Assembly (NCBI RefSeq): GCF_965641715.1
Contig: NZ_OZ282453.1
Direction: 5' to 3' (one strand)
From: Escherichia coli
GTDB lineage: Bacteria; Pseudomonadota; Gammaproteobacteria; Enterobacterales; Enterobacteriaceae
Length of the DNA: 64,000 nt
Shown here one piece after another: positions 6,996 to 38,983 of this stretch (positions within the stretch are counted from its first letter, which is position 1; every line of letters begins with the position of its first letter). The notes under the pieces were generated by a model. It was not told the origin of the DNA. It searched no databases and was given only the letters and a program-made list of their open reading frames with translations. Position numbers and translations under genes: made by a program.

Positions 6996-7017
6996 AAAAA
7001 ATAAGCCCGTGTAAGGG
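6996..7017. repeat. attL core: 22-bp direct repeat aaaaaataagcccgtgtaaggg shared with attR
   Basis: Exact repeat found at 6996..7017 and 38957..38978; matches the P2 att core as I recall it. Confidence 0.7.
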
Positions 7018-7101
7018 CGTTTATATACCCTTACAACAGGGGCTTTCAGCGGTGCAATGCGGGTTTGCGCGGCACGCAAGACCACTGAAAGCCATAATAA
7101 A

Positions 7102-8115
7102 CTACCCTACTGTGGACACTGTGTGGACACTCTGAGAGCCAACACCACCACGTAGAGGATTAAGCGTTATCGCGTCCTGTAGGTACTCAGGGGCGAAGTG
7201 CGCATATGTCATTGTCTGCTCAATTCTTGAATGCCCAAGTATTCTCTGAAGCGTGATAATGTTGCCTCCGTTTATCATAAAGTGCGTGGCGAAGCTGTGC
7301 CGCAATGCGTGCGTAGCCTGACCCGGTGGTAGGTCGGGTTTCAGCTCCTTCATTAGCCGTCTGAACGCGGGATAGTTAGCATCAGTGAACAGATAGCCAC
7401 GCTTACCCGTTGTGATCATTGTTGCCAGTTCCTCGGATATAGGAACGGTTCGCGGCTTGTTGGTTTTTGTCTTAACGAAAGTGACGCGATTTTGAATGAT
7501 ATTTTCCGCTTTCAGTTTTGCTGCCTCACTCCATCTCGCGCCGGTGCTAAGGCAAAGAATCGCAATTTTTTTATTATCACCGTCCACTTTTGACAGCAGA
7601 AGCGCGATCTCCTCTTGCGTCAGGTAGCCGGTTTCTGGCTTATCCTCTTTGAGTCTTTTAAGACCTCGGAAAGGATGCTCCCCGAAAAATAGCTCCGCAT
7701 CTATCAACGCGGTAAACATCCCGCTAAGACACGTTAAATCACGATTTATACTCGATGGCTTGATGCCTTGAGAACGCCGCACAGTGCTGTATTGGCTTAT
7801 CAATGACTTAGTAATCTGAAAGGCACAAGGGTCACTGGTTATCTTTGTGAACAACTCTAACTTGCCCAGGTAATCTCGGCCGTGAGTTTCATACTTGCCT
7901 TTCAGCTCCCACCAGATTTTTGTTAGCTCTGACAGATGCCGCTTATCTGTCGGTTTCGCCAACCATTTTTTGTTGTGATGGTTGTACTGGGTATGCTTCT
8001 CGAAAGCGATAGCTTCGCTTTTCTTGTCAAATTTCCTGCGGATGCGCTTTCCGTTGCGCCCTGCAGGTCTAATGTCCACTTCATAACGACCATCATCGAG
8101 CTTTTTAACAGACAT
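7102..8115 (-). CDS. int: P2-type tyrosine integrase (337 aa)
   Basis: Near-identical to remembered P2 Int; start set at MSVKKLDDGRYEV; catalytic R..HxxR..Y region present. Confidence 0.9.
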   Translation of the reverse strand: MSVKKLDDGRYEVDIRPAGRNGKRIRRKFDKKSEAIAFEKHTQYNHHNKKWLAKPTDKRHLSELTKIWWELKGKYETHGRDYLGKLELFTKITSDPCAFQITKSLISQYSTVRRSQGIKPSSINRDLTCLSGMFTALIDAELFFGEHPFRGLKRLKEDKPETGYLTQEEIALLLSKVDGDNKKIAILCLSTGARWSEAAKLKAENIIQNRVTFVKTKTNKPRTVPISEELATMITTGKRGYLFTDANYPAFRRLMKELKPDLPPGQATHALRHSFATHFMINGGNIITLQRILGHSRIEQTMTYAHFAPEYLQDAITLNPLRGGVGSQSVHTVSTVG

Positions 8116-8211
8116 AAAGCCTCCCGATGATGTTACTGCGTACTTCAATTTCCTGATTTAAATAACAAAAACTCACCGTGCATTTACTGCACAGATAAGC
8201 ACCGTAAATGG

Positions 8212-8508
8212 TTAGCCAGTTTTCTGGTCTGAGTGGGGTGACGTTGTTGTCTGCTGCCCAAAGTGCGCGAGAGCCGGTGCAATCTGCCCAGCTTCTGGTG
8301 ATATCGTCTCAGTCATGAACCACATGGTATATTTTTTGAACTGTGGATGATTCAAAATCTTCATCACTGCTTGTATGCCCATATCTTTTACTCCCTTCTC
8401 ATAACTAGAAAGAGAGCTATACGGAACTCCAGTTAAGTCACTGAATTCTTTTCTATTCATACGTTCCGACTCACGCATGATGGCCAGCTTCTCGTTGACG
8501 GGTATCAT
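8212..8508 (-). CDS. P2 immunity repressor C (99 aa)
   Basis: Matches P2 C C-terminus (TPQFTKYTMWFMTE..SPHS.QKTG); start set at MIPVNEK. Confidence 0.8.
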   Translation of the reverse strand: MIPVNEKLAIMRESERMNRKEFSDLTGVPYSSLSSYEKGVKDMGIQAVMKILNHPQFKKYTMWFMTETISPEAGQIAPALAHFGQQTTTSPHSDQKTG

Positions 8509-8643
8509 CGTAATTAACACTCCACTATTGATAGAAAAACGATAACGGAGTAATCTTCGCTTCGTTACCGCAGATTTATGGCTCCAATATGGCAATTAAA
8601 AGCCATTAGGAGCAATTAAAACACTAACGAGGAATAGTCACAA
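8509..8643. promoter_or_regulatory. Divergent immunity switch region between C and cox (expected Pe/Pc promoters and operators)
   Basis: Position between divergent C and cox genes; inferred from P2 organisation, individual sites not mapped. Confidence 0.45.
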
Positions 8644-8919
8644 ATGAATAGGGTCATTGAGAGCGCGAGCGACGCGGTTCCGTATCAGGAGTTTGCGCGT
8701 CTTATTGGTAAAACCCCTGCTGCTGTCAAAGGGATGATTGAGAAAGGCAAACTACCGATAGTTGAGATGACTGATCCGCAGTCTACAAGTGGGAGAGCAG
8801 GGGAATACCGGGTATATCTGCCAGCATGGAACAAAGGCATGAAGATGGCCTATGACAGTCGCCCTAAAGAAATTCGTGATGGTTGGTTGATGTGGTTGGG
8901 ATTAGGTGAACCAGCATAA
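8644..8919 (+). CDS. cox: Cox excisionase / transcriptional regulator (91 aa)
   Basis: Strong similarity to remembered P2 Cox (PYQEFA.LIGK...GRAGEY.VYLPAWN...PKEIRDGWLMWLGLGEP). Confidence 0.85.
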   Translation: MNRVIESASDAVPYQEFARLIGKTPAAVKGMIEKGKLPIVEMTDPQSTSGRAGEYRVYLPAWNKGMKMAYDSRPKEIRDGWLMWLGLGEPA

Positions 8920-9100
8920 GGAGCCAGAAATGAAAGAGCCACGTTGTATAGCTCAGTTACTGCGTAACGAAAGTCCACGCCCGATGAAGTTCAACATCAC
9001 TCATGGTAAAGGGCGTAAAGGCATCATCATCCGCACTCGCAAGCCTGGATTTATTGCTATGGCTAAACGCTTTATGAAATCCCGAGGGATATCGTTATGA
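8906..9100 (+). CDS. Hypothetical early-operon protein (64 aa)
   Basis: ORF in early operon between cox and B; basic small protein. Confidence 0.4.
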   Translation: MNQHKEPEMKEPRCIAQLLRNESPRPMKFNITHGKGRKGIIIRTRKPGFIAMAKRFMKSRGISL

Positions 9101-9597
9101 CGGTTATGACTCTTGCATTAGTTCAAAAACAACCTGCAGCTCTACGCGTCGTTATAGGAAAGCATCTTGCGGAACCTCGCTGGCACGATACCTGTGATTT
9201 TTATAATCAGATGATGGAGCGTGACCGCTTGACTGTCTGTTTTCATGCTCGGTTAAAACAGCGTCACGCAGTAATGCGCTTTGAAGAAATGAATGATGTC
9301 GACCGCGAACGTCTGGCTTGTGCTATCGATGAGCTGCGCGCTGCTTTTTCAAAACGTCGTCAGGTTGGCGCAAGTGAATCTGCATATATTAGTTTTCTAA
9401 CGGTGGGTCAGCGCCGCTCTTTATTTCTACACGCGGGATTGAGTGAGGTCGAGTTCAATCAGCCTTACTGGCGCATTGACGAAGATGCTTGTTATTGGCG
9501 AGAGAAACTATTCCGCGCTTTGCGTGAGCTTTTTGGGTTATTTGAACACGCGCCAACGATATTAACCTCGGTAAAGCCTGAGCAGTATTTACATTAA
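9097..9597 (+). CDS. P2 gpB-like replication protein (166 aa)
   Basis: Size and position as P2 B, translationally coupled to neighbours. Confidence 0.7.
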   Translation: MTVMTLALVQKQPAALRVVIGKHLAEPRWHDTCDFYNQMMERDRLTVCFHARLKQRHAVMRFEEMNDVDRERLACAIDELRAAFSKRRQVGASESAYISFLTVGQRRSLFLHAGLSEVEFNQPYWRIDEDACYWREKLFRALRELFGLFEHAPTILTSVKPEQYLH

Positions 9598-9645
9598 TTA
9601 ATCTGGATTCGTTTTATTACACGCCTTACTGCGTGGGGATTCCTT

Positions 9646-9882
9646 TTGTCTGGAGATAGGCAAATGCATAAACAAAATAAAGTGCCGACGTGTGTGCTCT
9701 CGGTACATCTGGCGCAAGCGTTGCGCGATGCGCAGCTCGATACCGCGACCCGTTTATCCTCTCATTTTGATCGCCTAATTGCGCACATCAGTAAGTTAGA
9801 ACTCAACCGCACCGAGATCATCGAGCTATTGGGGCAAGAGTCCGAAAAATTGCACAACTCAATTTTTCATTGTGCTTGCTAA
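9646..9882 (+). CDS. Hypothetical early protein (P2 orf80-position)
   Basis: ORF only; position. Confidence 0.4.
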   Translation: MSGDRQMHKQNKVPTCVLSVHLAQALRDAQLDTATRLSSHFDRLIAHISKLELNRTEIIELLGQESEKLHNSIFHCAC

Positions 9883-9904
9883 TCAATTTTAGAAGGAGAC
9901 AAAA

Positions 9905-10180
9905 ATGAGTATCCGTATCGAGATAAATCATCAGTATGTAGTTACAAGCGATCGCTACCAGTTCATTTTGCAGGAAAAGAAAGTGGCGACTGCTGGAAAA
10001 AATAAAGGTAGCGAATGGCTTGATACTGTCGGGTATTACCCGACGATTCAAAAACTGATTTCTGGTCTGGTACTACATGACCTTTTAAATGGCGGTGCTG
10101 ATAGTTTTGCGGCGTTGGGTGAGCAGGTCGAGCAGTTGGGACTGCAATGTCAGACCGCGTTTTGTGCTGATGGCCGTTGA
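9905..10180 (+). CDS. Hypothetical early protein (P2 orf81/82-position)
   Basis: ORF only; position, RBS aaggagac upstream. Confidence 0.4.
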   Translation: MSIRIEINHQYVVTSDRYQFILQEKKVATAGKNKGSEWLDTVGYYPTIQKLISGLVLHDLLNGGADSFAALGEQVEQLGLQCQTAFCADGR

Positions 10181-12461
10181 GACTCGGGGGCGTATTGCCC
10201 CCTCGCTAGCCCTGCCAATATCTAAGCGCACCGGCGATACTTTCGTTGGTGCTTATCCCTGGAATGCTCCCCGCGCTGCCATTGGCCGTGACAGACCCCT
10301 TACACGTGCCGAATTCCGTCAGGTGCAAGGTGTTTTATACCGGATTGACCGCCTGCCTTTCTTTCTTAAGACGTTGTTTACTTCCCGTTATAACTTCATT
10401 CGTCGCACAAAGAGCCCGCCCGGGGCGCTCTATTTCCTGAAAAACACCTTTGAGCGGAAGCTGTTGCCGCGTCTTGAGCGCGTTAACGAGCTGTGCGGGA
10501 TGAATGAATCTGCGTCGATTGGTTTCTTGTCTGAGCGTGACGAATATGCGCGCTTGCCTGATATGAATGACAAAGAGCTGAAAAAATTTGCGGCCAGAAT
10601 TGCCGCGCAGCTCTGGCGTAAATACGAGGAACTCAGCGACGAATGGGCTGAGGCATTCGGCGGTAAAGAGACCCTTTTCACCGATGAGGCGCAGGTGCAC
10701 ATATATGGTCAGGTGGCTGGTGTTGCACGCGCGTTCAACTTAACCCCGCTCTACTGGAAAAAATACCGTAAGGGTCAGATGACGATCCGCATGGCGTTTT
10801 CCGCTATTTCCCGTCTGATAAAAGATGATTGGTGGGTTAACCAGCTCAAGGCGCAGCGTATGCGCTGGCGCGAGGCGCTGCTTATCGCTGCCGGTGAAGT
10901 CAACAAAGACCGTTCACCTTACGCCAGCAAAATGGCGATCCGCGAGGTTCACTCGCGCCGGCTGGCTAATCTCGAATACCTGAAATCCTGTGAGCTGGAA
11001 AACAAAGTTACCGGCGAACGTATCGACCTCATCAGTAAAGTCATGGGGAGTATTTCAAACCCTGAAATACGCCGTATGGAGCTGATGAACACCATTGCCG
11101 GAATTGAACGCTATGCGGCCAGCGTTGGTGATGTGGGAATGTTTATCACGCTGACCACGCCGTCGAAGTATCACCCGACCCGACAGGTCGGCAAAGGTGA
11201 CAGCAAAACGGTGCAGCTCAATCACGGCTGGAACGAAACCGCATTCACCCCTAAAAACGGCCAGCGCTATCTGTGCCGAATCTGGAGCCTGATGCGTACC
11301 GCTTTCAAAGATAACGATTTGGAAGTGTATGGGATGCGCGTTGTCGAGCCGCACCACGACGGCACGCCACACTGGCATATGATGCTTTTTTGCAAACTCA
11401 GTCAGCGTAAAGCTATCAACGAAATTATGCGTCGTTATGCCCTCAAAGAGGACGGACACGAAAAGGGCGCGGCAAAACAGCGCTTTGAGTCGCGTCACCT
11501 TAATCAGGGGGGCGCGGCGGGTTATATCGCCAAATACATTGCCAAAAATATCGACGGCTACGCGCTTGACGGTCAGCTCGATCACGATACCGGCAAATCT
11601 CTGAAAGATACGGCCGCAGCCGTAACCGCATGGGCGTCTACATGGCGTATCCCTCAGTTTAAACCGATTGGCCTCCCGACAATGGGCGCTTACCGCGAAC
11701 TGCGTAAGCTGCCGCGCGGGGTGAGTATCGCCAGCGAGTTTGACGACCGTGTCGAGGCCGTCCGGGCTGCTGCAGATGAGGGGGAATTTGACCTGTACAT
11801 CAGCGCGCAGGGTGGGGCAAACATGCCGCGTGATGCTCAGGCGGTCAGGGTCGCCCGTAAGGTGACGGATGAGGTAAACGAATACGAGGAGGATATCGAG
11901 AAAGTGGTCGGTATTTATGCCCCTCATCTTGGGGTGAGCCGCGTACATGTAACCCGTACAGCGGAATGGCGCATAGTTCCAAAGGTTTTGGCCGTTGAGC
12001 CTTTGACCTTAAAAAGCGGCTCTGCCGCGCCTCGGAGTCCTGTCAATAACTGTGGAAAGCTTGCCGACGGTGGCGATCCAGTTATGACACCTACACCGTC
12101 TGAGCAAGCCGCAGCGGTGTTAAATCTGATTGAGGCCGGGGTTATCGGCTGGAATGAGCCAGACGTCATGAAGGTTCTTAACGGCGCGTTAAAAGCTGGC
12201 GCACCTCGCAATAATCGCCAGCAAAGAAGCAATGCGCCACTCAAAACGAGCGAGCAAGCTCCATCAGCCAGGATGACAACACCAGAAAGGGATCGCGTGG
12301 CGAAAATTCGTTTCGATTTGGCTCAGGAGGGCATTACCCCAGAACGGTGGGCGCTCGAAGCGCTGGCGCGTGGGGCAACGGTGATTTATGGCGATAAAAA
12401 AATCAAATACGCGGCTGCTGATGAGTGGCCGGGATTCTCAATTCAAGAGGAGCAGAATTAA
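10170..12461 (+). CDS. P2 gpA rolling-circle replication initiation endonuclease (~763 aa)
   Basis: Extensive identity to remembered P2 A; start placed at MAVETRG rather than the upstream extension. Confidence 0.9.
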   Translation: MAVETRGRIAPSLALPISKRTGDTFVGAYPWNAPRAAIGRDRPLTRAEFRQVQGVLYRIDRLPFFLKTLFTSRYNFIRRTKSPPGALYFLKNTFERKLLPRLERVNELCGMNESASIGFLSERDEYARLPDMNDKELKKFAARIAAQLWRKYEELSDEWAEAFGGKETLFTDEAQVHIYGQVAGVARAFNLTPLYWKKYRKGQMTIRMAFSAISRLIKDDWWVNQLKAQRMRWREALLIAAGEVNKDRSPYASKMAIREVHSRRLANLEYLKSCELENKVTGERIDLISKVMGSISNPEIRRMELMNTIAGIERYAASVGDVGMFITLTTPSKYHPTRQVGKGDSKTVQLNHGWNETAFTPKNGQRYLCRIWSLMRTAFKDNDLEVYGMRVVEPHHDGTPHWHMMLFCKLSQRKAINEIMRRYALKEDGHEKGAAKQRFESRHLNQGGAAGYIAKYIAKNIDGYALDGQLDHDTGKSLKDTAAAVTAWASTWRIPQFKPIGLPTMGAYRELRKLPRGVSIASEFDDRVEAVRAAADEGEFDLYISAQGGANMPRDAQAVRVARKVTDEVNEYEEDIEKVVGIYAPHLGVSRVHVTRTAEWRIVPKVLAVEPLTLKSGSAAPRSPVNNCGKLADGGDPVMTPTPSEQAAAVLNLIEAGVIGWNEPDVMKVLNGALKAGAPRNNRQQRSNAPLKTSEQAPSARMTTPERDRVAKIRFDLAQEGITPERWALEALARGATVIYGDKKIKYAAADEWPGFSIQEEQN

Positions 12462-12925
12462 TGAGCAAAATCCATGAGTTAAAAATTGCACCTGAGTATT
12501 TTAACTCTGTGATATCTCAGGAAAAACGTGCTGAATTTCGTCTCAATGACCGCGATTATTCTAGCGGTGATATTCTCGGGTTGCATGAATGGGAACCGGT
12601 AAACAGATATACCGGGAAACGTGTATCAGTGAGGGTGACAAACGTTACGGATTTATCTGAATGGGCGGAAAATTATGTGATGCTGAGTTTTCAGTTAATG
12701 ATGCCAGATGTCCAGTGCGGTATGTCCCTAATGAACTGGAAAGAGTTAAGCGAGAAGGGGCTTGTTTTCAGAGTTAATCACGAAATTCTACACCCGTTAG
12801 GGCTGGCTATTAGATATGAAACACTTAACAGCGTTTCTGGTAGGGCTTACATCGCTGATGATGGTGTCTGGCAATATTCCGACAAGTTGGTCGCAGATGC
12901 TAAAAAAAATGGGTGGTTAAAATGA
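12461..12925 (+). CDS. DUF3850-like (ASCH/PUA-like) protein, 154 aa
   Basis: N-terminal HELKIAPEYF...EFRLNDRDY..GDIL motif; ATG overlaps gpA stop (TAATG). Confidence 0.5.
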   Translation: MSKIHELKIAPEYFNSVISQEKRAEFRLNDRDYSSGDILGLHEWEPVNRYTGKRVSVRVTNVTDLSEWAENYVMLSFQLMMPDVQCGMSLMNWKELSEKGLVFRVNHEILHPLGLAIRYETLNSVSGRAYIADDGVWQYSDKLVADAKKNGWLK

Positions 12926-13161
12926 GTCATATGCGAATGATGCCAGTGCCGCCGATACATTCAACGCAAAACATTAAGCTGATGGCCGTCGTACATCGCC
13001 TGCAACAAATTATGATTAACGAGAATCTGACCCCTGACGAACTGGTCGGGTGTGCCGGTGTCGTCCGGGATAATCACCGCAAATACAGCGATATCAGCAA
13101 TCCGAAAATTGAGGCGTTTCGGCCACCAAATATGGCAAAGCCACCACCGCGTCGACCATAG
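12913..13161 (+). CDS. Hypothetical small protein (82 aa)
   Basis: ORF only, proline-rich basic C-terminus. Confidence 0.3.
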   Translation: MVKMSHMRMMPVPPIHSTQNIKLMAVVHRLQQIMINENLTPDELVGCAGVVRDNHRKYSDISNPKIEAFRPPNMAKPPPRRP

Positions 13162-13443: not shown

Positions 13444-13462
13444 GGCGAGGCGGGGTAAGCGT
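13444..13462. other. cos-like 19-mer ggcgaggcggggtaagcgt (first 12 nt match the P2 cohesive-end sequence as recalled)
   Basis: Partial match to remembered P2 cos GGCGAGGCGGGGAAAGCAC; location between A region and Q is as expected. Confidence 0.3.
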
Positions 13463-13533: not shown

Positions 13534-15090
13534 ATGATTAAGGGTATAGGTCTTCAAAACTTCAGGAGCTTTGTCAACAAAACGTTTATTGATTTAAAAC
13601 CAATTACAGTATTTGTTGGTAAGAACAGCAGTGGTAAAAGTTCCCTATTGCGCACATTTCCTTTACTTCGTCAATCTGTAGAAGAAAATACTACTGGCCC
13701 AATACTATGGTATGGGAGATATGTGGATTTTGGCGATTTTACAGATGTACTTTCCCGAAACTCTGAAAAAAAAGAAATTACGTTTAGTTTTTCACTCTCA
13801 ATTCCGCCAGAGGTTTCACAAAGATATACATATTATCGTTCTACTGATTTAGCAAAGCAACCAACAGATATTGAAGCAGAGTTAACTGTTTACTCTAAAG
13901 ATAAAAAAACAAAAACGAAAACGATTAAGCTTATATTGGCTGATTTAACAATATTTATTTCAATGGATGAGAGTAGTAATGTTAAATTACTCATTGAATC
14001 AGATGATAAAACAATAGAGCGTGATGGGATAATAGCTAAAAATCTTGGGCAGTTCATACCAAATCTAATTTTGAAGGGTAAGGAAGACAGTCCTCCTCCA
14101 AGCACATCATTCTATTTGAGACATTCTAGGCATGACAGGGCGTTAGAATTGTCATTTATTGATTCAGCGGCGAAATATATAAAGAAATATTTCCATACTA
14201 AATCTGATATAAATCAAGTGACAGAGGCATTCAAAAGAATTGGCTTTATACCCAAAGCGTACGCTAGTAAATTAGTTGCTTTTCTATTTAAGGAACAAAA
14301 AGTTTTTAGTAGAAACTTTGAATTTCAACATGATGAAATAATGAATGAGTTATATCCATTTATAATTGGATGGAATATTAATAATCTTATAGATATAATA
14401 AATACATCCTTGTCAGATTCATTCAGAAATGTAAAGTACATAGCTCCACTGCGTGCTACATCAGAAAGATTTTATCGTTTTCAAGATTTACAGGTTAATG
14501 AGATAGATCATACTGGTTCCAATCTTGCAATGCTTTTGAATTCATTAAGACCGGCTGATAAATCAAAATTTGAAGATTGGACAAAGTTAAATTTTGATTT
14601 CATTATCAAGGTTGAACAAAGTGGCTCTCACTTTGCAATTTTAATAAACACCGGTGAAAATAGTGAGAACTATAATGTTAGTGATATGGGGTTTGGTTAT
14701 TCTCAGGTTTTGCCGATAGTTACAGCCATTTGGCTTGAGACAGAACGTCGTGCTACCACGGTTAGAAAACCTATAACATTTATCATTGAGCAGCCAGAAT
14801 TGCATTTACATCCGTCATATCAGCATAATTTAGCAAGTATTTTTGCAAAAGTAGTAACTAAAGCAAAAGAAAATAATGTAGATTTGAAGATAATTTTTGA
14901 GACACATAGCCAGACCATGATTGAAGCACTTGGTGAATATATTGAGGAAAATGAAAGTCTTTCACAGGATGATATTTCAATACTGGTATTTGAAAAAGAT
15001 GATAAGCAGCAGACTATAGTTAAGAAATCTTATTTTGACGAGAATGGTTTCCTAAAAAATTGGCCGGTTGGCTTTTTCTCGGGTAAGTAG
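13534..15090 (+). CDS. OLD/AAA_21-like ABC ATPase (518 aa), first gene of cargo operon
   Basis: Start MIKGIGLQNFRSF with GGAG RBS; Walker A GKNSSGKSS (13618..13644); Walker B-like FIIEQPELHLHP (14779..14814); FETHS H-loop; AT-rich. Confidence 0.8.
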   Translation: MIKGIGLQNFRSFVNKTFIDLKPITVFVGKNSSGKSSLLRTFPLLRQSVEENTTGPILWYGRYVDFGDFTDVLSRNSEKKEITFSFSLSIPPEVSQRYTYYRSTDLAKQPTDIEAELTVYSKDKKTKTKTIKLILADLTIFISMDESSNVKLLIESDDKTIERDGIIAKNLGQFIPNLILKGKEDSPPPSTSFYLRHSRHDRALELSFIDSAAKYIKKYFHTKSDINQVTEAFKRIGFIPKAYASKLVAFLFKEQKVFSRNFEFQHDEIMNELYPFIIGWNINNLIDIINTSLSDSFRNVKYIAPLRATSERFYRFQDLQVNEIDHTGSNLAMLLNSLRPADKSKFEDWTKLNFDFIIKVEQSGSHFAILINTGENSENYNVSDMGFGYSQVLPIVTAIWLETERRATTVRKPITFIIEQPELHLHPSYQHNLASIFAKVVTKAKENNVDLKIIFETHSQTMIEALGEYIEENESLSQDDISILVFEKDDKQQTIVKKSYFDENGFLKNWPVGFFSGK

Positions 15091-15092
15091 TT

Positions 15093-16205
15093 ATGTTGAT
15101 TAATATCGAAAATGCGACACCTGAGAAGGTGCTAAATAACTCATTTGCCATAGCGGTTGAAAATATACTTCGGGCATTCGCTGAACAAAAACACTTGGTT
15201 ATAGGGGCAAGGGTTTTTTTTAAAACTATTATCAATGATCAAAGCGGGCTTTATAGCCTTTCATCAAAAAGTTACGCGCAAGAGGCTTTGTCGGGTCTAA
15301 CAGAGTACTATGCTATCTTGGATCAGGTCTCATTTTATGTATCTGTCGACTTTAATATTAGTGATAAATCATTTAAATGGGTTCAGATCGGTGAATCTTT
15401 TAAATTTGTTTGTGGTCCATTGTATTTTAATGACTCGGCACAATTGCAAAAAACGAAAATAGTATGTGAAAATCCTTTGGATTCTGATTTTTTTAAGGTT
15501 ATAGCGGCTCATTATGCCGAAGGTATTAACTTATCTCGCTGCGAAATGGGTTTTATCGCTCTAAATGGCGGTGGGGGCAGTACTAAGGATATATTCGAGC
15601 GTGCAATTCAAAATAATGAGATAGTTTTTTGTATTGTGGATAATGACAAAAAACATCCTGGAGCCCCATTCGGAGGTACTTGCTCACATTTTTTGGGCTC
15701 ACAAATTACTCGCTCAGGTTTCGTGGAGATTTTAGATGTACATGAAATAGAATCTCTAGTTCCTTTATCGACAATTGAAGATGTATTAAGAAGTCAAAGT
15801 CAATTGCAACAAAAAGAAAAATCTCTCATTTTCTTTAAGCATCTTTGCTCCGTAGATGAATCAGTAAAATTTTATATTGACCATAAAAAAGGTTTTGATT
15901 TTAAAACAGCCCTTGAACTCGATCGAAAACATGGTGCATATTGGCGTCCGATATTAAAGAAGCTTGATATAAAATATGATTGTGAGTATATCGAATCAAA
16001 ACGTTGTAGCTGCAACGCTGCTTGTGTAAGTTATGATGGTTTTGGAGAGAATTTGCTCAGCAATACATTGAAATATATACAAAAGGGAAGTTTAAAAAAA
16101 TATAATCCTCACCTAACACCAGTGCTTTCTGATAAATGGTATAAGTTAGGTAAGAATTTCTTTAGTTGGAGTTGTGGTCCATATAAAAAAGCAAGGGTTG
16201 GTTAA
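15093..16205 (+). CDS. Partner protein (370 aa) with Toprim-like signature, possible nuclease effector
   Basis: ATG 2 nt after ATPase stop; YAEG (15519..15524), GGGG, IVDNDKKHP (DND at 15639..15647); C-terminal Cys cluster; AT-rich. Confidence 0.65.
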   Translation: MLINIENATPEKVLNNSFAIAVENILRAFAEQKHLVIGARVFFKTIINDQSGLYSLSSKSYAQEALSGLTEYYAILDQVSFYVSVDFNISDKSFKWVQIGESFKFVCGPLYFNDSAQLQKTKIVCENPLDSDFFKVIAAHYAEGINLSRCEMGFIALNGGGGSTKDIFERAIQNNEIVFCIVDNDKKHPGAPFGGTCSHFLGSQITRSGFVEILDVHEIESLVPLSTIEDVLRSQSQLQQKEKSLIFFKHLCSVDESVKFYIDHKKGFDFKTALELDRKHGAYWRPILKKLDIKYDCEYIESKRCSCNAACVSYDGFGENLLSNTLKYIQKGSLKKYNPHLTPVLSDKWYKLGKNFFSWSCGPYKKARVG

Positions 16206-16210
16206 ATTAT

Positions 16211-16235
16211 CACAGCCCCGATAAAGTGGGCTGTG
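16211..16235. terminator. Hairpin (cacagccc/gggctgtg) downstream of cargo operon, possible terminator
   Basis: 8-bp inverted repeat followed by T-rich stretch. Confidence 0.35.
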
Positions 16236-16300
16236 ATGTTATTATCTGTGGTTCTTGAGTTACAGGGCTGAATATAATGTTGAGATGTTTATTTTGAAAA

Positions 16301-17308
16301 TCAAAGTGAATATTTTTTAAATCTTATAACTTCCATTTCTAACCAGTTGTTTAGTTCTTTGAACCGTTCCTGTAAAGGAGTTAACTCATTTCGGACAAAC
16401 ACTTGTGCAGCTTTTACAACATCACCAAAACCGCCAACATTGTCAGGCATAATTCCCATCATTTGTGGTGGTACCCTATGAGCACTCAACAAATCTTCTG
16501 CACTAACCTTTTTGATATTGAAAAAATCATCTTTCGTGGCGACTTCACTCAACGGCACAATCTTGATGCCATCCGGTTTCCCGTTGGGCGCGTAGAAAAA
16601 CAGGTTTTTGAAATTCCCGAGTCCTTTTGAGTCGCGCATCGCGTTACGGAGAGATTCAACATCGGTGCTGCTCTGTGCCGCGTCGGTGACATACATGATG
16701 TACCCCGCATGTGCGCCATTCTGATAATACTTGCGGCGAAACAGGGTAGCGGATTCATTCAGCCAGGCGGAATTAAGCGCGCTCAGGTATTCCGGCATCC
16801 CGTACAGCTCCTGATTGATATCGGGCTCAAGCAGGTGACACACAGAACCGGGGGCGAACGGGTGCGGCTGGGTGTAGCTCGACACGTACCAGTAAACGCC
16901 ATCTTCGACACCCCGGCGGGTGTATTTGGCCGGTGAGGTTTCCAGTTTTAAGAGCTGGCCGGTGACGCTCATGCGCTTCTCAAGATAGCCGTTGGCAAAA
17001 ACCAGATAATCAAGCACAAGGCGACTGAAATCCTGACGTGACAGCAACGGGTGCGGGATATAGGTGCTCGTCAGAATGTTACGTTTCACGTAAATCGGCG
17101 AGCTGTGATGGACGGCGGCGCGCAGGCTTTTTGCCAGTCCCGAGAAATTGACCGGCGGCTCGTACCATTTCCCGTTATTGATACACTCTACGTAGTCGAG
17201 GATGTCGCGGCGATCCAGAACGGGAGAAGGCTCACCAAAGGTGAACGCCTCCATTTTTTGCGGTGCGCTGGCGGTCATTGTGGCGGGTTTCTTCTGTCGT
17301 TTTTTCAT
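16301..17308 (-). CDS. Portal protein (P2 gpQ-like)
   Basis: 335-aa ORF, position opposite terminase P, similarity to P2 Q from memory. Confidence 0.85.
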   Translation of the reverse strand: MKKRQKKPATMTASAPQKMEAFTFGEPSPVLDRRDILDYVECINNGKWYEPPVNFSGLAKSLRAAVHHSSPIYVKRNILTSTYIPHPLLSRQDFSRLVLDYLVFANGYLEKRMSVTGQLLKLETSPAKYTRRGVEDGVYWYVSSYTQPHPFAPGSVCHLLEPDINQELYGMPEYLSALNSAWLNESATLFRRKYYQNGAHAGYIMYVTDAAQSSTDVESLRNAMRDSKGLGNFKNLFFYAPNGKPDGIKIVPLSEVATKDDFFNIKKVSAEDLLSAHRVPPQMMGIMPDNVGGFGDVVKAAQVFVRNELTPLQERFKELNNWLEMEVIRFKKYSL

Positions 17309-17309: not shown

Positions 17310-19079
17310 TTAGTTAATATCCAGAATTGAGGTTGATTGCATGCCGCTACCGGCGGAAAGCGGCTCGTTTAACAGGGCGTGCATGGTCGCCCACGCAATA
17401 TCCGCGTGACTGGCTTCCTCGCTGCGGCTGGCTTCATAGGTGGCACTGCGCCCGCTGCTGGTCATGGTTTTACGGATCGCCATAAATGACTGCGTGATGT
17501 CGGTTGCTCCGGCGTCATATTCCAGACACCCGCGTCGGATGGTGTCTTTCGCTTTCAGCACCATCGCGGTTTTCATTTCCGGCGTGTAGCGAATGGCGCG
17601 CGCTGCCGGGAAGAAGGAGCGCACGAGCTGGTAAACACCCTGGCCGATGCCGGTCGCATCGATGCCGATATACTCGACGCAATATTTCTCTGTCAGCTCG
17701 CGGATGGCCTCGGCCTGCGTCGCAAAACCCATCCCTTTCCACTGGTGACGCTCAAGGATGCGGAACTTGCCACCGGCAACCAGTGGCGGAGCCAGTACCG
17801 CACAGCCTGCGCTGTCGCCGGTGTGCGACGGGTCATAGCCAATCCAGACCGGACGCCAGTTAAACGGACGGTCAGAGAACGGCGCAAAGTCCTCCCATTC
17901 TTCCATCGCATCGACCATGCAGCGCTGCAGCTCCTCGAACGGGAATACCGACGCTTTATCGTCGACGAATTCGCACATGAAGAGGTTGCGGAAATCGTCG
18001 GCGCTGTTTTCCTGTTTCAGTTGATCCAGATTAAACAGGGTGCAGCCACCGGCGAGGGCATCCTCAATGGTGACGATCTGCCGCCACTGCCCGTCCGGGC
18101 ACAGCACGCCACCGGCGAGCGCCTTATGACTGATGTCAATGTCGACACGCTCACTCGCGCTGCTGCGTCCCCTGTTGAACAGCTCACCTGACCAGAACGG
18201 ATACGCGCCGTGCGCCAGCGTCGAAGGGGTTGAAAAATAGGTGGTGCGCAGGTGGGATTGTGACGCCATCCCCGAGGCCACTTTACGCAGCCGCTGAAAG
18301 TTGGGGATCCAGAAGATTTCATCGACATACAGGTCGCCGTTATGGCTCTGCGCGGTGTTGGAGTTTGTCCCGAGGAAAATCAGCTCTGCACCGTTGTTGC
18401 CGATAACAATCGGGTCGCCTGACAGGTCGACGTCGACCATGCGCGCAAAGGCGATGATGTACTTTCGGAACACGTAAGCCAGCGTCTTACTGGCTGACAA
18501 AAATATCTGGTTTTGCCCGGTTTTGAGGGCGCGCAGTAATGACTCACGGGCAAAGTAGAACGTCGCGCCAATCTGGCGTGATTTGAGGATGTGGCGAATA
18601 CGGTGCGCGATACCGGCCTTGTGCCAGTTGAGCTGATACTCAAAGGACTGGTCGAAGAAAATCTCTTCCAGCTTTTCGATGGCCTCATCGCTGAAAAAAT
18701 TGCGTTTCGGCTTGCGGCGATCGCCCTTGTTACGACTGGCAATGTTGGGGTTTAAATCCACTTCATTACCGGTCTGGCCGTAGCGGTTGATGCGTGCGAA
18801 CCGTTCCATCTGGCGTGACAGAAAGTCAGCGACCTTAAAGTCATGCGGCGTCAGGTCAGGCTTTGCATAAAGCTGAATCAGGCGCGCCTCGAGCGTCGTT
18901 TCCACGCGGTTAAGCGGGGCGGTTTCCTCCCACCCGTCACGCTGTTTCCAGCTCTGCACGGTCGGGCGCTTAACCTGCAGTGTGTCGGCGATTTGTGGCA
19001 CGGAAAATCCCTGCCAGAACAACAGCCGCGCCTGTCGTCGCGGGTCATGCAAAAGGGAGAGGTCAGTCGAAATGGTCAT
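17310..19079 (-). CDS. Terminase large subunit (P2 gpP-like, 589 aa)
   Basis: Start at ATG giving MTISTDLSLLHDPRRQARLL as in P2 P; the TTG at 19109 is rejected. Confidence 0.9.
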   Translation of the reverse strand: MTISTDLSLLHDPRRQARLLFWQGFSVPQIADTLQVKRPTVQSWKQRDGWEETAPLNRVETTLEARLIQLYAKPDLTPHDFKVADFLSRQMERFARINRYGQTGNEVDLNPNIASRNKGDRRKPKRNFFSDEAIEKLEEIFFDQSFEYQLNWHKAGIAHRIRHILKSRQIGATFYFARESLLRALKTGQNQIFLSASKTLAYVFRKYIIAFARMVDVDLSGDPIVIGNNGAELIFLGTNSNTAQSHNGDLYVDEIFWIPNFQRLRKVASGMASQSHLRTTYFSTPSTLAHGAYPFWSGELFNRGRSSASERVDIDISHKALAGGVLCPDGQWRQIVTIEDALAGGCTLFNLDQLKQENSADDFRNLFMCEFVDDKASVFPFEELQRCMVDAMEEWEDFAPFSDRPFNWRPVWIGYDPSHTGDSAGCAVLAPPLVAGGKFRILERHQWKGMGFATQAEAIRELTEKYCVEYIGIDATGIGQGVYQLVRSFFPAARAIRYTPEMKTAMVLKAKDTIRRGCLEYDAGATDITQSFMAIRKTMTSSGRSATYEASRSEEASHADIAWATMHALLNEPLSAGSGMQSTSILDIN

Positions 19080-20100: not shown

Positions 20101-20160
20101 TAACCCGCCGGGTGCGCGTCACCCGGCCTGATGCCCCTTTTTAGAAAAACAGGAATAACA

Positions 20161-21228: not shown

Positions 21229-21231
21229 GCC

Positions 21232-21987: not shown

Positions 21988-22086
21988 CCGAGCGCTCCCC
22001 GAGCCGGGCGGCACGCCGGTCAATGCGGGTATTGATTGCCCTGACTGCGACCGGCGTCCACCGCCCACCCATTACCCGAGGTTGTC

Positions 22087-27098: not shown

Positions 27099-27103
27099 AC
27101 GTT

Positions 27104-28012: not shown

Positions 28013-28535
28013 TACCCGTCTGCTGCCGGTGGGCTCGTCGCCGCTTGAGGTGGCGGCGGCGCGCGCCTGCGCGGATATCGAAAATACCCCTGTCCCGCTG
28101 CGTCGCCTCTGGAACCCTGACAACTGCCCCGCAAACCTGCTGCCGTGGCTGGCCTGGGCGTTTTCGGTTGATCGCTGGGATGAGAGCTGGCCGGAAGAAA
28201 CCAAACGCGAGGTTATCCGCAGCGCGTGGTTTATCCATGCGCACAAAGGGACGATAGGTGCGGTGCGTCGTGTGGTCGAGCCGCTCGGGTATCTGATTAA
28301 CGTGACGGAGTGGTGGGAGACGAACGACCCGCCGGGCACGTTTCGCCTTGATATCGGCGTGCTGGAGACCGGCATCACCGAGGAAATGTATTACGAAATG
28401 GAGAGGCTTATTGCTGATGCAAAGCCAGCCAGCCGCCATCTTATTGGCCTGAATATTATCCAGGACATACCGGGTTATCTCTTCACCGGAGCCCTGACCT
28501 ATGACGGCGACATCATCACGGTTTACCCCGGATAA
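28005..28535 (+). CDS. Baseplate protein I-like
   Basis: 176 aa as P2 I. Confidence 0.8.
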
Positions 28536-28546
28536 GTGAGAACACA

Positions 28547-30229
28547 ATGACAGTGAAATATAAAACCGTTATCACCCGAGCCGGTGCGGAAAAACTGGCG
28601 GCGGCGACGCTCCCGAACGGGAAAAAAGTCAATTTTGCGGTGATGGCCGTCGGGGACGGTGGCGGTAAGCTTCCCGAGCCGGACGCCAGTCAGACAAAAC
28701 TCGTCAATGAGGTCTGGCGTCATGCGCTGAACAAAATCTGCCTGGACAAAAAACATAAAAATTATGTCGTGGCGGAGCTGGTGATCCCCCCGGAGACCGG
28801 CGGTTTCTGGCTGCGTGAAATGGGGCTTTACGATGACACCGGCACGCTGATTGCGGTCGGCAATATGGCCGAAAGTTATAAGCCCGAACTGGCGGAAGGG
28901 TCAGGCCGCGCACAGACGCTGCGCATGGTGATCATGGTGAGCGATATCGACACCGTCGAGCTGTCCATCGATACAACACTGGTGATGGCGACGCAGGATT
29001 ATGTCGACGATAAACTCGCAGAGCATGAGCAGTCCCGTCGCCATCCTGACGCCACGCTGAAAGAAAAAGGGTTCACGCAGTTAAGCAGTGCGACCGACAG
29101 CACGTCTGAGGCGCTCGCCGCGACGCCGAAAGCGGTCAAAGTGGCGTATGACCTTGCGAAAGGTAAATACACGGCTCAGGACGCGACCACGGCGCAGAAA
29201 GGGATTGTCCAGCTCAGTAGCGCCACCGACAGCGTGTCTGAGACCCTCGCCGCGACGCCGAAAGCGGTTAAGGCGGCGAATGATAATGCTAATGGCCGCG
29301 TTCCTTCCTCGCGCAAAATTAACGGACATTCCCTGAATGCTGACATCAGTGTCACCTCGCAGGATATTTTCGACGGTCAGGCTATTGGGCTGGTAATGGA
29401 GGATTTAGATACCCTGAAAACGCCGGGTATTTACTTTCAGCCAGCGAACGCCAATACCTCAGCCGCCAGACATTACCCTGAAAATAACGCCGGGACGCTG
29501 GTCATTTATAAAAATGCCGGAGTGACTCAGGTATACCGGGTTTATAACAGCTCCCGGAGCTACTCGCGCAGCCAGTATTCAACAGGTGCATGGACACCGT
29601 GGACGCCTGATGATGTTTTTCCGGTAGGCGCGCCCGTTGCGTGGCCGTCTGACAGTGTTCCTGCTGGTTATGCCGTCATGCAGGGACAAACTTTTGATAA
29701 AGCCGCTTATCCGCTTCTTGCGGCTGTGTACCCATCGGGTGTTATTCCTGATATGCGGGGCTGGACAATCAAAGGTAAACCGGCCAGCGGTCGTGCAGTG
29801 CTTTCACAGGAACTGGATGGCATCAAGTCACATACTCACAGCGCAAGTGCATCAAATACAGACTTAGGTACTAAATCAAGCAGTGCATTTGATTACGGTA
29901 CTAAAACGGCCAGCACATTTGACTATGGTACTAAAACCACTAACAGCACCGGAGCGCATGCGCACGGTATTTCTGTTGGTAACACAGGCGCAGGTAATGG
30001 TATTTCAGCAGGTTACAACTCAGGGCTGGGCAATGGAACGACGGGGAGTGCAGGTGCGCACGCCCATACGGTCGGTATTGGCGCTCACAACCACACCGTT
30101 GGAATTGGTGCTCACAGTCATACTGTGGCAATAGGGGCTCACGGACATAACATCACTGTTAACGCAGCCGGTAACGCTGAAAACACCGTCAAAAACATCG
30201 CATTCAACTATATCGTGAGGCTTGCCTGA
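28547..30229 (+). CDS. Tail fibre protein H-like (560 aa) with internal repeats and HxH-repeat C-terminal tip
   Basis: Conserved N-terminus ([28 protein letters not shown]), duplicated [17 protein letters not shown] repeats, C-terminal GAH.HT repeats. Confidence 0.85.
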
Positions 30230-30807
30230 TGACTTTCAAAATGACCGGGAAAAGCCGGACAATCACTGTTTATAACTATCGCGCAGATACCTGTGAATTT
30301 ATTGGAAAAGGTGACGCCCTGATCCCACCATTTACCGGACTCCCTGCCTGTTGTACCAGTGAAAAACCGCCAGAAACCAGCGCGGGATGTATTCCCGTTT
30401 ACGACACTGAAAGCGGACGATGGAACATCACTGAAGACCACAGGGGTGAGGTTGTCTATGACACTGAAACAGGTCATCAGATGGAGATAACCGAACCGGG
30501 TAAATATCCGACAGGGACAACAACCGCTGCACCTGAAAACCCGTGGCAAAAATGGAATGGTAAAGCATGGATTGATGATGCTGATGCAGAACGGAATGCA
30601 TTGACTGAGTCTGCGAAAAACAACAAAAGCATGCTTCTTAAGCAGGCCAATACTGCGGTTGCGACATTACAGGACGCTGTTGATCTGGAGATGGCAACCG
30701 AAGATGAAAAAGCACAGCTCGCGGCATGGAGGAAATACCGTGTTTTACTGAGCCGCATCCAGCCAGAGAATGCCCCGGATATTGAATGGCCGCCGCTGCC
30801 AGTCTGA
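30229..30807 (+). CDS. Tail fibre assembly chaperone (G-like)
   Basis: 192 aa, translationally coupled to H. Confidence 0.75.
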   Translation: MTFKMTGKSRTITVYNYRADTCEFIGKGDALIPPFTGLPACCTSEKPPETSAGCIPVYDTESGRWNITEDHRGEVVYDTETGHQMEITEPGKYPTGTTTAAPENPWQKWNGKAWIDDADAERNALTESAKNNKSMLLKQANTAVATLQDAVDLEMATEDEKAQLAAWRKYRVLLSRIQPENAPDIEWPPLPV

Positions 30808-32135: not shown

Positions 32136-32147
32136 GGAGCTCTGAGC

Positions 32148-35621: not shown

Positions 35622-35634
35622 GGGAGGGATAAAA

Positions 35635-37561: not shown

Positions 37562-37572
37562 CAAACGAGAAA

Positions 37573-37595
37573 GCCCCGCGAATGCGGGGCTTTTT
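37573..37595 (+). terminator. Rho-independent terminator after ogr (gccccgc-gaat-gcggggc + TTTTT)
   Basis: Perfect 7-bp GC stem followed by T5. Confidence 0.65.
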
Positions 37596-37866
37596 GCAAC
37601 TTTTAGATCAGTTATGTTAAGTACATTTCCGTCGGCAAAGTGCCAGGAGCGGGTTCTAGAGAGTGACTAACGTTAGTTATATGTGTAAAATTCCTTAAAA
37701 ATAAGAAGGATATATATCCATGACAGCAATTGCATATTGGATTAACTGAGAATCAATTGAGAAATTTTTGGGGGGCAAAAAATAAACTAGCTAATTAAAT
37801 TTTTATAAATAACGAATATAAGACTGCAAGCCATTTAACAAAAGTTTATAAATAAAGGAGTCAGTT

Positions 37867-38718
37867 TTGAACAATATCCCCATATCTACTCAATGGACTT
37901 TAGACGCTACGGGTGAAGTTGGACGCTCATCAGTAAATTCTGTTTATATGATTATATGTCCTGCGACAGGCTCGAAAGGATCTGGTTTTTTAATAGATAA
38001 TGGGTTAATAGTAACGAACGAGCATGTTATCACTGGATGCTCTACAAATCAGATTTTCGCAATTTCAGCTTATGGACAGAAGATTCCAATTTCTCAAAAA
38101 TGGATAGATTCTGATCGCGATTTAGCTGTGCTGAGACCTGCCATTACCCAGACTGGTGGGCTAAGTATTGTTAAGGATAATGATCTTAAAGTTGGTGAAT
38201 CAGTAACAACTTGGGGATACCCATTAGGATACAACGGTCCTGCACCGTTACTATCCGTTGGTTATCTAGCAGGATTTAACTCATACCAAACCGCCAAGGG
38301 ACAAAAAAAACATCTAGTGGTAAATGGGGCATTTAACTCAGGAAATTCTGGTGGAGCTCTTTTAAAAGCTTCAGATAATAAAGTAATAGGTATTGTAGTG
38401 AGTAAGCATGCTCCTATCAGTCAATACCATCAATCAGCTATTGAAGCTTTGTCTGAAAATATGAGTGGCGTCACCTATACCGCTACTAATGACGCTGGAG
38501 AAACTAAAAGTTTTGTAGAATCTCAAATTGTAGCAGAATTATTGATTCATATGAGAAGTCTAACTCAAGTTATGATTGGAGAAGCAATTGCAGCAGAGGA
38601 ATTACTTTCGATGCTTAGCGAAATTGACTTGAGTCCACCACAATCTATGTCAAGAAATGCCTTATGTCATTGCGGGAGTGGAAAACGCTTCAAAGAATGT
38701 CATGGAAAGATATCCTAG
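37867..38718 (+). CDS. AT-rich cargo: trypsin-like (S1/chymotrypsin fold) serine protease with C-terminal SEC-C zinc-binding motif
   Basis: TTG start with strong aaaggag RBS 7 nt upstream; catalytic-triad-like TNEHV / DLAVL / GNSGGAL; C-terminal CHCGSGKRFKECHG (38662..38703). Confidence 0.65.
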   Translation: MNNIPISTQWTLDATGEVGRSSVNSVYMIICPATGSKGSGFLIDNGLIVTNEHVITGCSTNQIFAISAYGQKIPISQKWIDSDRDLAVLRPAITQTGGLSIVKDNDLKVGESVTTWGYPLGYNGPAPLLSVGYLAGFNSYQTAKGQKKHLVVNGAFNSGNSGGALLKASDNKVIGIVVSKHAPISQYHQSAIEALSENMSGVTYTATNDAGETKSFVESQIVAELLIHMRSLTQVMIGEAIAAEELLSMLSEIDLSPPQSMSRNALCHCGSGKRFKECHGKIS

Positions 38719-38888
38719 TAAGTACTTATATCAGTCTGATAATGGCTCTTCAAATACAAAAGACTTCACTTACTCTGCCGTCATCTCTGCTCCTCGCTTA
38801 TTGCAGACGGTCAAAAGCTTACAAGCTGTTGACTAGATGTGTTCTTACATTGTCAGTTAAAACAAAAGCCCCGCAAATGCGGGGCTTT

Positions 38889-38911
38889 TTGTATCGATGT
38901 GGTCAATGTGT
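38889..38911 (+). terminator. Rho-independent terminator after protease cargo (gccccgc-aaat-gcggggc + TTTTT), near-duplicate of the ogr terminator
   Basis: Same stem sequence as 37573..37595. Confidence 0.65.
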
Positions 38912-38956
38912 GGACATTGATAGAAATAAATCCATTTATTTCAGTAAGTTACATGC

Positions 38957-38983
38957 AAAAAATAAGCCCGTGTAAGGGAGATT
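38957..38983. repeat. attR core aaaaaataagcccgtgtaagggagatt (matches the 27-bp P2 att core as recalled), overlapping cyaR 3' end
   Basis: Direct repeat with attL; identity to remembered P2 attP core. Confidence 0.75.

Follow-up and report, generated by a model that had tools for sequence, protein, structure and literature searches.

The window, i.e., the whole 64,000-nucleotide stretch of Escherichia coli DNA analyzed here, contains a prophage of 31,961 bp bounded by exact 22-bp direct repeats (AAAAAATAAGCCCGTGTAAGGG) at 6996-7017 and 38957-38978. By our estimate, ~1e-4 such repeat pairs would be expected by chance in 64 kb. Similarity to the E. coli backbone, as represented in thousands of genomes, ends at these repeats, i.e., at ~7017-7023 on the left and at 38957 on the right, and between them lie homologues of the early, head, lysis, tail, and late-control genes of phage P2 in the same order as in P2. 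An initial annotation had placed a P2-like prophage at the 3' end of the cyaR gene with the same repeats as its bounds, and the repeats, the gene order and the ends of host homology bear this out. The features, listed from left to right, are the following (identities are to the P2 counterparts).

6996-7022, no strand: attL core; 22 bp equal to attR, end of host homology
7023-7133, no strand: attL P' arm, from alignment to P2 24356-24520
7102-8115, minus strand: integrase (tyrosine recombinase), 83.6% amino-acid identity to P2 Int over 336 of 337 residues; Int_N and Phage_integrase domains
8212-8511, minus strand: P2-type immunity repressor C, 60% amino-acid identity; phrog_147
8644-8919, plus strand: cox (excisionase and Pc repressor), 72% amino-acid identity; annotated in a relative as 'regulatory phage cox family protein'
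8930-10180, plus strand: early genes, i.e., orf78-like, B, orf80-like (DUF2732) and orf83-like (DUF5405), by homology to P2
10170-12461, plus strand: replication initiator A, 74% amino-acid identity, full length
12425-13161, plus strand: orf91-like DUF3850/ASCH protein and a small phage ORF (phrog_11386)
13444-13462, plus strand: cos cohesive-end sequence GGCGAGGCGGGGTAAGCGT, 16/19 to P2; isolated phage genomes end here
13534-15090, plus strand: cargo 1a, NsnB/AriA-like ATPase of the ABC/AAA_15 type; DUF3696 tail, Walker A motif at residues 29-36
15093-16205, plus strand: cargo 1b, 370-aa protein with no family assignment, predicted OLD-type TOPRIM nuclease
16301-17308, minus strand: portal Q, 75% amino-acid identity, full length
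17310-19079, minus strand: large terminase P, 83% amino-acid identity, full length
19246-22796, plus strand: head genes O, N, M, L and tail gene X, 68-76% amino-acid identity, full length
22787-24056, plus strand: lysis cassette, by homology to P2 and family matches
22787-23008, plus strand: non-P2 holin
22992-23501, plus strand: Phage_lysozyme endolysin
23498-23923, plus strand: lysB
23766-24056, plus strand: lysC
24019-24946, plus strand: tail completion genes R and S, by homology to P2
25039-25791, minus strand: cargo 2, Tin homologue, 55.6% amino-acid identity to P2 Tin; PADLOC Tin match at 5.6e-93, full length
26110-30807, plus strand: baseplate and fiber genes V, W, J, I, H, and G, by homology to P2
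30942-37259, plus strand: tail genes FI, FII, E/E+E', T, U, and D, by homology to P2
37340-37561, plus strand: late-gene activator ogr, by homology and an Ogr_Delta zinc-finger match (2.2e-20)
37597-38864, plus strand: cargo 3, low-GC insert flanked by duplicated ogr terminators
38865-38956, no strand: second terminator copy (38865-38891) and P arm
38957-38983, no strand: attR core
38957-39045, minus strand: host sRNA gene cyaR, intact, from Rfam and comparison with K-12

When extended to 38983, the right repeat matches the annotated attP core in the P2 record NC_001895 (24356-24382) at all 27 positions, in agreement with the initial annotation. The left core matches at 25 of the 27; the two departures are on the P' side, where CGTTT replaces AGATT. 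The P' arm carries two Int arm-type sites TGTGGACA (7111-7118 and 7122-7129), identical to those in the P' arm of P2. The P arm carries the sites TGTGGTCA (38898-38905) and TGTGGACA (38909-38916), as well as an A/T-rich stretch that aligns with the IHF site of P2. Both arm-site pairs are identical to those of P2, and each is found on the expected side. Hence, the features of P2 Int integration specificity, i.e., the 27-bp core and the repeats on both arms, are present. The P' arm and the core fold together into a hairpin (-47 kcal/mol) that resembles a terminator and follows int. An ORF of 103 aa (38664-38975) that spans the P arm and the core has no family match and was treated as spurious.

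The attR core constitutes the loop, the 3' half of the stem and the U-tail of the CyaR terminator. Rfam detects CyaR in full length on the minus strand (38960-39045, 100.7 bits), and 87 of 87 nucleotides are identical to cyaR of K-12, in agreement with the earlier proposal that integration regenerates the sRNA. The P2-type tyrosine integrase would have catalyzed site-specific recombination between attP and its target in the chromosome, the 3' end of cyaR. As the phage core copies half of the CyaR terminator, the crossover would restore the whole sRNA gene at attR, and at attL the phage P' sequence would pair with the core to form the hairpin after int. We take the 3' end of cyaR to be the classical P2 site 'locI'. 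This equation is based on database annotations of P2 and K-12; a search of the accessible literature library found no paper equating P2 locI with the 3' end or terminator of cyaR.

In K-12, the interval between cyaR and yegR contains only a 629-bp cryptic prophage, PR-X, with ogrK and the pseudogene yegZ, which confirms what the initial annotation had stated about this strain. PR-X shares the locus and the orientation with the prophage described here and has retained both att cores, with that of attR fused to cyaR, as well as the P arm, the terminator, ogr, and a 3' portion of D. The remaining sequence is ~69% identical to the matching part of the prophage and lacks the trypsin cargo.

Uninterrupted full-length homologues of P2 Q, P, O, N, M, L, X, R, S, V, W, J, I, FI, FII, E, T, U, D, ogr, int, C, cox, B, and A are present. 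The structural synteny of P2 is kept at 49-84% amino-acid identity, with Q-P divergent from O-N-M-L-X, followed by the lysis genes, R-S, V-W-J-I-H-G, and FI-FII-E-T-U-D. H (28547-30229) is P2-like only in its N-terminal 253 aa; H and G (30229-30807) are full length relative to the tail-fiber and chaperone PHROGs. The slippery sequence TTTTTTG of E/E' is found at 33008 in a context, GGTTTTTTG, identical to that in P2, and the -1 frame of E' is open up to its end at 33190 and conserved in sequence; the programmed frameshift feature is, therefore, present. D is intact (387 aa), and ogr is followed by a terminator (37570-37596). Of the late promoters, those of the pP/pO and pF regions can be aligned with their P2 counterparts, and a CTGTTGT half-site is found upstream of V. 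The initial annotation had claimed a full set of P2 genes, which holds for the early, head, and tail genes, but not for the lysis genes: no homologues of P2 Y, K, or lysA were found, their places being taken by an unrelated holin and an enzyme of the Phage_lysozyme family. Frameshifts or deletions in essential genes and a mismatch of the att repeats with P2 attP had been named as grounds for rejection; no such frameshift or deletion was found, and the repeats do match. Inactivation by missense mutations is invisible to the methods used here.

The replication and packaging functions also follow P2. B (9097-9597) is 83% identical to its P2 counterpart at the amino-acid level, and A is a P2-like rolling-circle initiator with the ori inside its own gene (~11993-12079), where no difference from P2 is found in the sequence surrounding the nick site, GCCGCGCCTCGGAGTCCTGTCAATAACTGTGGAAAGCT. 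In P2, cos is located beside the portal gene, but no cos was found in the corresponding 95-bp gap (16205-16301); it lies 2.8 kb away, beyond cargo 1. The 19-nt cos is present between A and Q, with the flanks of the predicted cleavage site conserved as in P4. The three mismatches with P2 include the last two bases. The conserved left flank and GCGCGC on the right are retained, and from 8 nt onward on the right cargo replaces P2-like sequence.

P2 and the prophage further share the C/Cox switch, Ogr, and the presence of cargo at the A-Q, S-V, and fiber-adjacent variable positions. In contrast to P2, Y, K, and lysA are either replaced or lacking, G and the tip of H differ, and old, fun(Z), orf30, orf81, and orf82 are missing. 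Furthermore, tin has been relocated to the S-V site, the cargo beside cos is on its right rather than on its left, and an additional cargo is found between ogr and attP. Overall, 70% of the genome aligns with P2 at 73.5% identity. The resulting ~51% is far from the ~95% genome-wide nucleotide identity by which the ICTV delimits species, and membership of the species Peduovirus P2 was rejected. The earlier description as a 'complete P2-like prophage' stands in the sense that no defect is visible, which is all that 'complete' can mean, and that the element is P2-like, not P2.

SOS-inducible P2-like phages of the 186 type possess the antirepressor gene tum under the control of a LexA box, together with 186-type CI, Apl, and CII. 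The prophage lacks these: tblastn searches found no homologue of 186 Tum, CI, Apl, or CII (E > 0.4), and neither strict nor relaxed scans detected a LexA box, the best LexA-like site matching at 10 of 20 positions. SOS control was, therefore, rejected, and the P2-type C/Cox switch suggests that the prophage would not be SOS-inducible. Because tum, a 186-type CI, and a LexA box are lacking, the mitomycin C induction proposed in the initial annotation is ill suited as a test, and a negative outcome is likely even for a viable prophage.

Three accessory modules are located at known P2 variable sites and most likely contain anti-phage genes that benefit the lysogen. The ATPase of cargo 1 matches NsnB (4.9e-55) and AriA (7e-31). 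Its partner has the invariant residues E126, D183xD185, and H217-E218-x-E220 and a C-terminal cysteine cluster, and their pairing is conserved in L009, L011, and L012. In PARIS, Menshen, and P2 Old, as predicted for cargo 1, an OLD-type ABC ATPase is combined with a TOPRIM-type nuclease beside cos in P2/P4 elements. PARIS consists of the ABC ATPase AriA and the DUF4435 TOPRIM nuclease AriB, and Menshen of NsnA (DUF262), NsnB (ABC ATPase with DUF3696), and NsnC. In Menshen, docking of the effector has been predicted for the DUF3696 tail; the similar tail in cargo 1 would dock and restrain the predicted TOPRIM partner. Cargo 1 was not assigned to Menshen: an NsnB-like gene is present, but a DUF262 gene is not, and cos lies 72 bp upstream. 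Tentatively, the cassette (13534-16205), with its NsnB-like ATPase and unclassified, predicted OLD-type TOPRIM nuclease, could be an uncharacterized system of anti-phage defense that differs from PARIS, Menshen, Septu, and Old, a proposal with somewhat less than even support. Cargo 2, at the S-V (orf30) hotspot, has the homology expected of a P2 Tin family member. Cargo 3 encodes a protein with Trypsin_2 and SEC-C motifs (37867-38718).

The cyaR site contains a large insert in ~860 (~16%) of 5,423 complete E. coli genomes. A ~95% identical prophage is found in ~39 complete genomes, e.g., those of GXU-23-25-310, WP2-S18-ESBL-07, and NDM3. These prophages occupy the same site and carry the same trypsin cargo, with 99.3% identity in int and the early region, 99.9-100% in cargo 1, and ~95% in the late genes. 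Their S-V hotspots are occupied by other genes, and the Tin homologue is absent from all of them. No identical copy was found in 5,426 complete E. coli genomes because of this S-V insert. In GXU-23-25-310, the closest chromosomal relative, D is frameshifted; hence, the lineage does decay in place. Among the isolated phages in 50,697 records, the nearest is ENT4, an 'UNVERIFIED' record with ~59% genome-wide similarity.

Taken together, the element is very probably an intact-looking temperate myovirus of the P2 family (Peduoviridae) that was integrated by Int at the 3' end of cyaR. It may alternatively be a recently immobilized cryptic prophage, in which excision, packaging, or assembly is blocked by a point mutation, by the divergence of cos, or by the cargo next to cos, and which serves purely as a carrier of host-beneficial cargo. 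The imperfect cos with its right flank replaced past 7 nt, the frameshifted D of the nearest relative, and the lack of a close isolated phage would fit this explanation, but no essential gene is truncated or frameshifted. Moreover, P4, which is packaged by the P2 terminase, shares with P2 just the left flank, the 19 nt, and GCGCGC, all of which are retained here, and likewise has cargo to the right of cos. With shared flanks in P4 and P2 equally minimal, a packaging defect caused by the cargo is not favored. The cos-cargo junction is also present at 99-100% identity in 38 genomes, and immobilization as a whole is rather improbable. The mosaicism relative to the relatives described above, with a nearly identical early region and cargo 1, more divergent late genes, and an S-V insert of its own, demonstrates that the prophage is indeed shaped by homologous exchange. 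It could also reflect arrival of the prophage in the present lineage by general recombination with the chromosome of a neighboring lysogen, e.g., by transduction or conjugation of the whole yegR-cyaR interval, and not by Int. This is highly improbable; the junctions have the exact attL/attR anatomy of an Int reaction, and such a route would alter only the inheritance of the element, not its nature.

As an intact-looking temperate phage, the prophage may still be able to excise and to form infectious particles. Lysogeny would be governed by the P2-type C repressor versus Cox, without SOS input. Lytic growth would follow the P2 scheme, with A-mediated rolling-circle replication from the ori in A and Ogr-activated late operons, packaging from cos at 13444-13462, and lysis by the swapped-in holin and lysozyme together with LysB and LysC.

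The prophage is one more P2-family lysogen at a site filled in about one-sixth of the complete E. coli genomes, and in this respect the main finding changes little. It does show how an att core that copies an sRNA terminator spares the sRNA, and, in practical terms, SOS induction is the wrong viability test for it. More interesting than the prophage itself are its cargoes, i.e., a conserved pair of an ATPase and a TOPRIM-like nuclease without a family assignment, a second member of the Tin family at another hotspot, and a widespread but unnamed trypsin/SEC-C protein, all three of which are cheap candidates for anti-phage assays.

The P2-like prophage at 6996-38983 is flanked by direct repeats of 22 bp, AAAAAATAAGCCCGTGTAAGGG, exact copies of each other at 6996-7017 and 38957-38978; by our own estimate, chance alone would give ~1e-4 such repeat pairs in 64 kb. 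Chromosomal similarity, compared with >5,400 E. coli genomes, ends exactly at both repeats, which are thus the ends of the insertion, as the initial annotation had proposed. The inserted element measures 31,961 bp, one core copy counted. When lengthened to 38983, the right repeat matches the annotated P2 attP core (NC_001895, 24356-24382) at 27 of 27 positions, in agreement with the 27-bp att core named in the initial annotation; the left repeat matches it at 25 of 27, with CGTTT in attL and AGATT in attR. This core supplies the terminator loop, the 3' half of the stem and the U-tail of CyaR, which is present at full length on the minus strand (38960-39045; Rfam, 100.7 bits with a gathering score of 47) and identical to K-12 cyaR over 87/87 nt. 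Hence, the sRNA is intact and the right repeat forms its 3' end, as had been claimed. The P arm, on the left side of attR, contains TGTGGTCA and TGTGGACA in a sequence context shared with P2; next comes an A/T-rich stretch alignable to the P2 IHF site. On the right side of attL, the P' arm carries two P2-identical TGTGGACA repeats.

Some further features surround attL. On the minus strand, 3' of int (6985-7101), P' sequence and the att core pair into a strong hairpin that resembles a terminator, with a U-run behind it, and mimics the CyaR terminator; the fold of the whole segment is -47.1 kcal/mol vs. a much weaker -28.6 kcal/mol for the equivalent P2 segment. The host flank beside the attL core (6944-6995) contains a degraded version of the P2 P arm (TCGATGTGGTCAATG..GACGGTGACCAG) at roughly the right spacing from the core. 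Since this copy is also found in empty-site genomes, the species-wide attB of E. coli looks like a fossil attR. The neighboring yegR (6415-6837) is low in GC, its position corresponds to that of the ogr-attR cargo of the prophage, and it may be a fossil moron.

The 42 proteins annotated in P2 were all searched against the window by tblastn. Full-length, uninterrupted matches in P2 order were obtained for int (84% amino-acid identity), C (60%), cox (72%), orf78, B (83%), orf80, orf83, A (74%) and orf91, for O, N, M, L, X, lysB, lysC, R, S, V, W, J and I, and for FI, FII, E, T, U, D and ogr (73%); Q and P were matched likewise, full length and uninterrupted, on the opposite strand. Similarity to P2 H is confined to the N-terminal 253 residues and that to G to the C-terminus, but both proteins are full length against the PHROG tail-fibre and fibre-chaperone families; this divergence is the usual swap of the host-range module. 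H also contains a 98-nt direct repeat (29066-29163 and 29198-29295), its copies 77% identical and offset by 132 nt, which probably reflects a recurring structural element of the fibre shaft. Of the gene set initially described, the early, head and tail genes stand in P2 order, whereas the lysis genes are only partly those of P2: no counterpart of Y, K or lysA was detected in the window by tblastn, and their position is taken by a small ORF resembling a holin and an enzyme of the Phage_lysozyme family, the pair that a near-identical relative has annotated as holin and lysozyme. The same search gave no match in the window for orf81, orf82, orf30, fun(Z) and old, all non-essential according to the P2 record. 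No frameshift, premature stop or deletion was found in the essential genes, and this, together with the att match, upholds the description of the prophage as complete, which is an in silico statement. Gene D is intact (387 aa) in the window; in the closest chromosomal relative, E. coli GXU-23-25-310, it is frameshifted by annotation (L004, 8297-9459), and the lineage thus already includes at least one defective member.

The P2-like reading is supported, with "P2-like" meant at the family level. Approximately 70% of the genome aligns with P2 at 73.5% identity (~51% overall), and Enterobacter phage ENT4, the best of the phage records although marked UNVERIFIED, comes to ~59%; by sequence, the element is a P2-family phage but not P2.

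The sites acting in cis are also retained. No cos was present beside the portal gene, the first place examined; a pattern search located it, GGCGAGGCGGGGTAAGCGT, at 13444-13462 (16/19 vs. P2), and isolated P2-like phage genomes align right up to this site and then terminate. Cargo begins 72 nt past cos, which might be taken as a sign of defect. When P2, P4, Wphi, P24A7b, ENT4 and the window were lined up on the cohesive end, P2 and its satellite P4 were found to share only ~30 nt to the left, the 19 nt themselves and GCGCGC to the right. P2 terminase packages P4. Since the window cos keeps all three shared parts and P4 likewise has accessory genes directly to the right of cos, cargo at this position is no evidence of a defect, and that reading was rejected as the leading one. 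Furthermore, the origin region within A is P2-identical across the nick site, the E/E' frameshift context, GGTTTTTTG, is the same as in P2 with a conserved E' encoded in the -1 frame, the pP/pO and pF late-promoter regions can be aligned to P2, and V has a CTGTTGT half-site upstream.

Classically, P2 is a non-inducible phage, and the lysogeny switch of the prophage is P2-type, with a short C repressor and Cox. Tum, CI, Apl and CII of phage 186 had no match in the window (tblastn), nor was a LexA box found there, the best similar site agreeing at 10/20 positions. Where P2-family prophages respond to mitomycin C, the response runs via a LexA-controlled tum (PMC11195241). From these observations, we infer that the prophage is not SOS-inducible, which would make mitomycin C induction uninformative as a test.

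In K-12 MG1655, as the initial annotation had stated, only a cryptic remnant occupies the locus: the 629-bp "cryptic prophage PR-X" between cyaR and yegR, with ogrK and the yegZ pseudogene. It aligns to the window in the order attL core, 3' part of D, ogr, terminator, P arm, core and cyaR. Site occupancy was assessed in 5,423 genomes with a synthetic empty-site query joined from both host flanks. The flanks lie within ~0.8 kb of each other in 4,562 genomes, which have an empty site, a ~170-bp insert (ST131, Nissle (EcN) and NC101 among such strains) or a K-12-type remnant; in ~860 (16%), E. coli B REL606 included, they are split by something large. A diverged P2-type integrase adjoins yegR in ~734 genomes, and a prophage ~95% identical across the late region is found in ~39. 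Cargo 1 is common to 38 genomes at 95-100% identity, mostly >99%, and the trypsin cargo occurs together with attR in 34. No complete E. coli genome matched the Tin-bearing S-V segment by megablast; thus, the exact mosaic is absent from that collection, while the lineage is present.

The window differs from K-12 elsewhere, too. A parDE toxin-antitoxin pair (ParE_toxin, ParD_antitoxin; 40592-41141, minus strand) lies between trhP (yegQ) and yegP, which in K-12 are separated by a gap of just 147 bp. At 53154-54284 on the minus strand are four SIB antitoxin RNAs in tandem (Rfam, 127-142 bits), presumably with an ibs toxin ORF opposite each; K-12 has two, sibA and sibB, at this position. The DeoR-family regulator gene gatR (4346-5125), adjoining yegS, is an uninterrupted 259-aa ORF, whereas in K-12 it is split by IS3E.

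Three low-GC islands in the prophage constitute its cargo, at positions that are variable or defence hotspots of P2-like phages (PMC9122126; bioRxiv 10.64898/2026.02.27.708500):

Cargo of the prophage
13534-16205, between cos and Q: cargo 1, two genes
25039-25791, minus strand, S-V (orf30) site: cargo 2, Tin homologue
37597-38864, between ogr and the P arm: cargo 3, Trypsin_2 protease with a C-terminal SEC-C motif

Cargo 3 belongs to a widespread, unnamed family of at least 696 clusters, the best 120 of which share 53-100% identity and come from distant bacterial groups. It is flanked by two 27-bp copies of the ogr terminator (37570-37596 and 38865-38891, 96% identical), whereas in P2 and in the K-12 remnant there is just one, immediately against the P arm; this suggests that the cargo came in through recombination at the terminator or through its duplication. 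The Tin homologue (PADLOC, 5.6e-93) is 55.6% identical to P2 Tin, the only protein-level match among 50,697 phage records; P2 tin lies beside old, whereas the homologue occupies the orf30 hotspot.

The first gene of cargo 1 encodes a 518-aa ABC/AAA_15 ATPase with a DUF3696 tail, whose best PADLOC matches are NsnB (4.9e-55), PDC-M55A and AriA. Its 370-aa partner had no sequence match in Pfam, PHROG, NCBIfam or PDB and belongs to a small family of 31 clusters, every one "hypothetical." Invariant in this family are, among others, E126, D130, G159/G161 (GGG loop), D183-x-D185 and H217-E218-x-E220, plus a C-terminal cysteine cluster, and the AlphaFold2 model is confident (pLDDT 89.5, pTM 0.88). The gene pair is kept in Thiothrix, in a cyanobacterium and at the psu-int hotspot of a P4-like satellite of Pantoea. 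In the latter (P. ananatis contig L011, 4442-7113), psu/delta/sid-like genes lie on one side and the integrase on the other, and one cassette thus serves both a helper phage and its type of satellite. A role in docking the effector is predicted for the DUF3696 tail of NsnB in the Menshen system (PMC12065111). Cargo 1 is best read as a predicted split, Old-like ATPase-nuclease defence module, which differs from Menshen in being without the sensor NsnA. The prophage as such is ordinary, a familiar phenomenon at a site that is often used; the remaining interest lies in its cargo, the unclassified ATPase/TOPRIM-like pair foremost.
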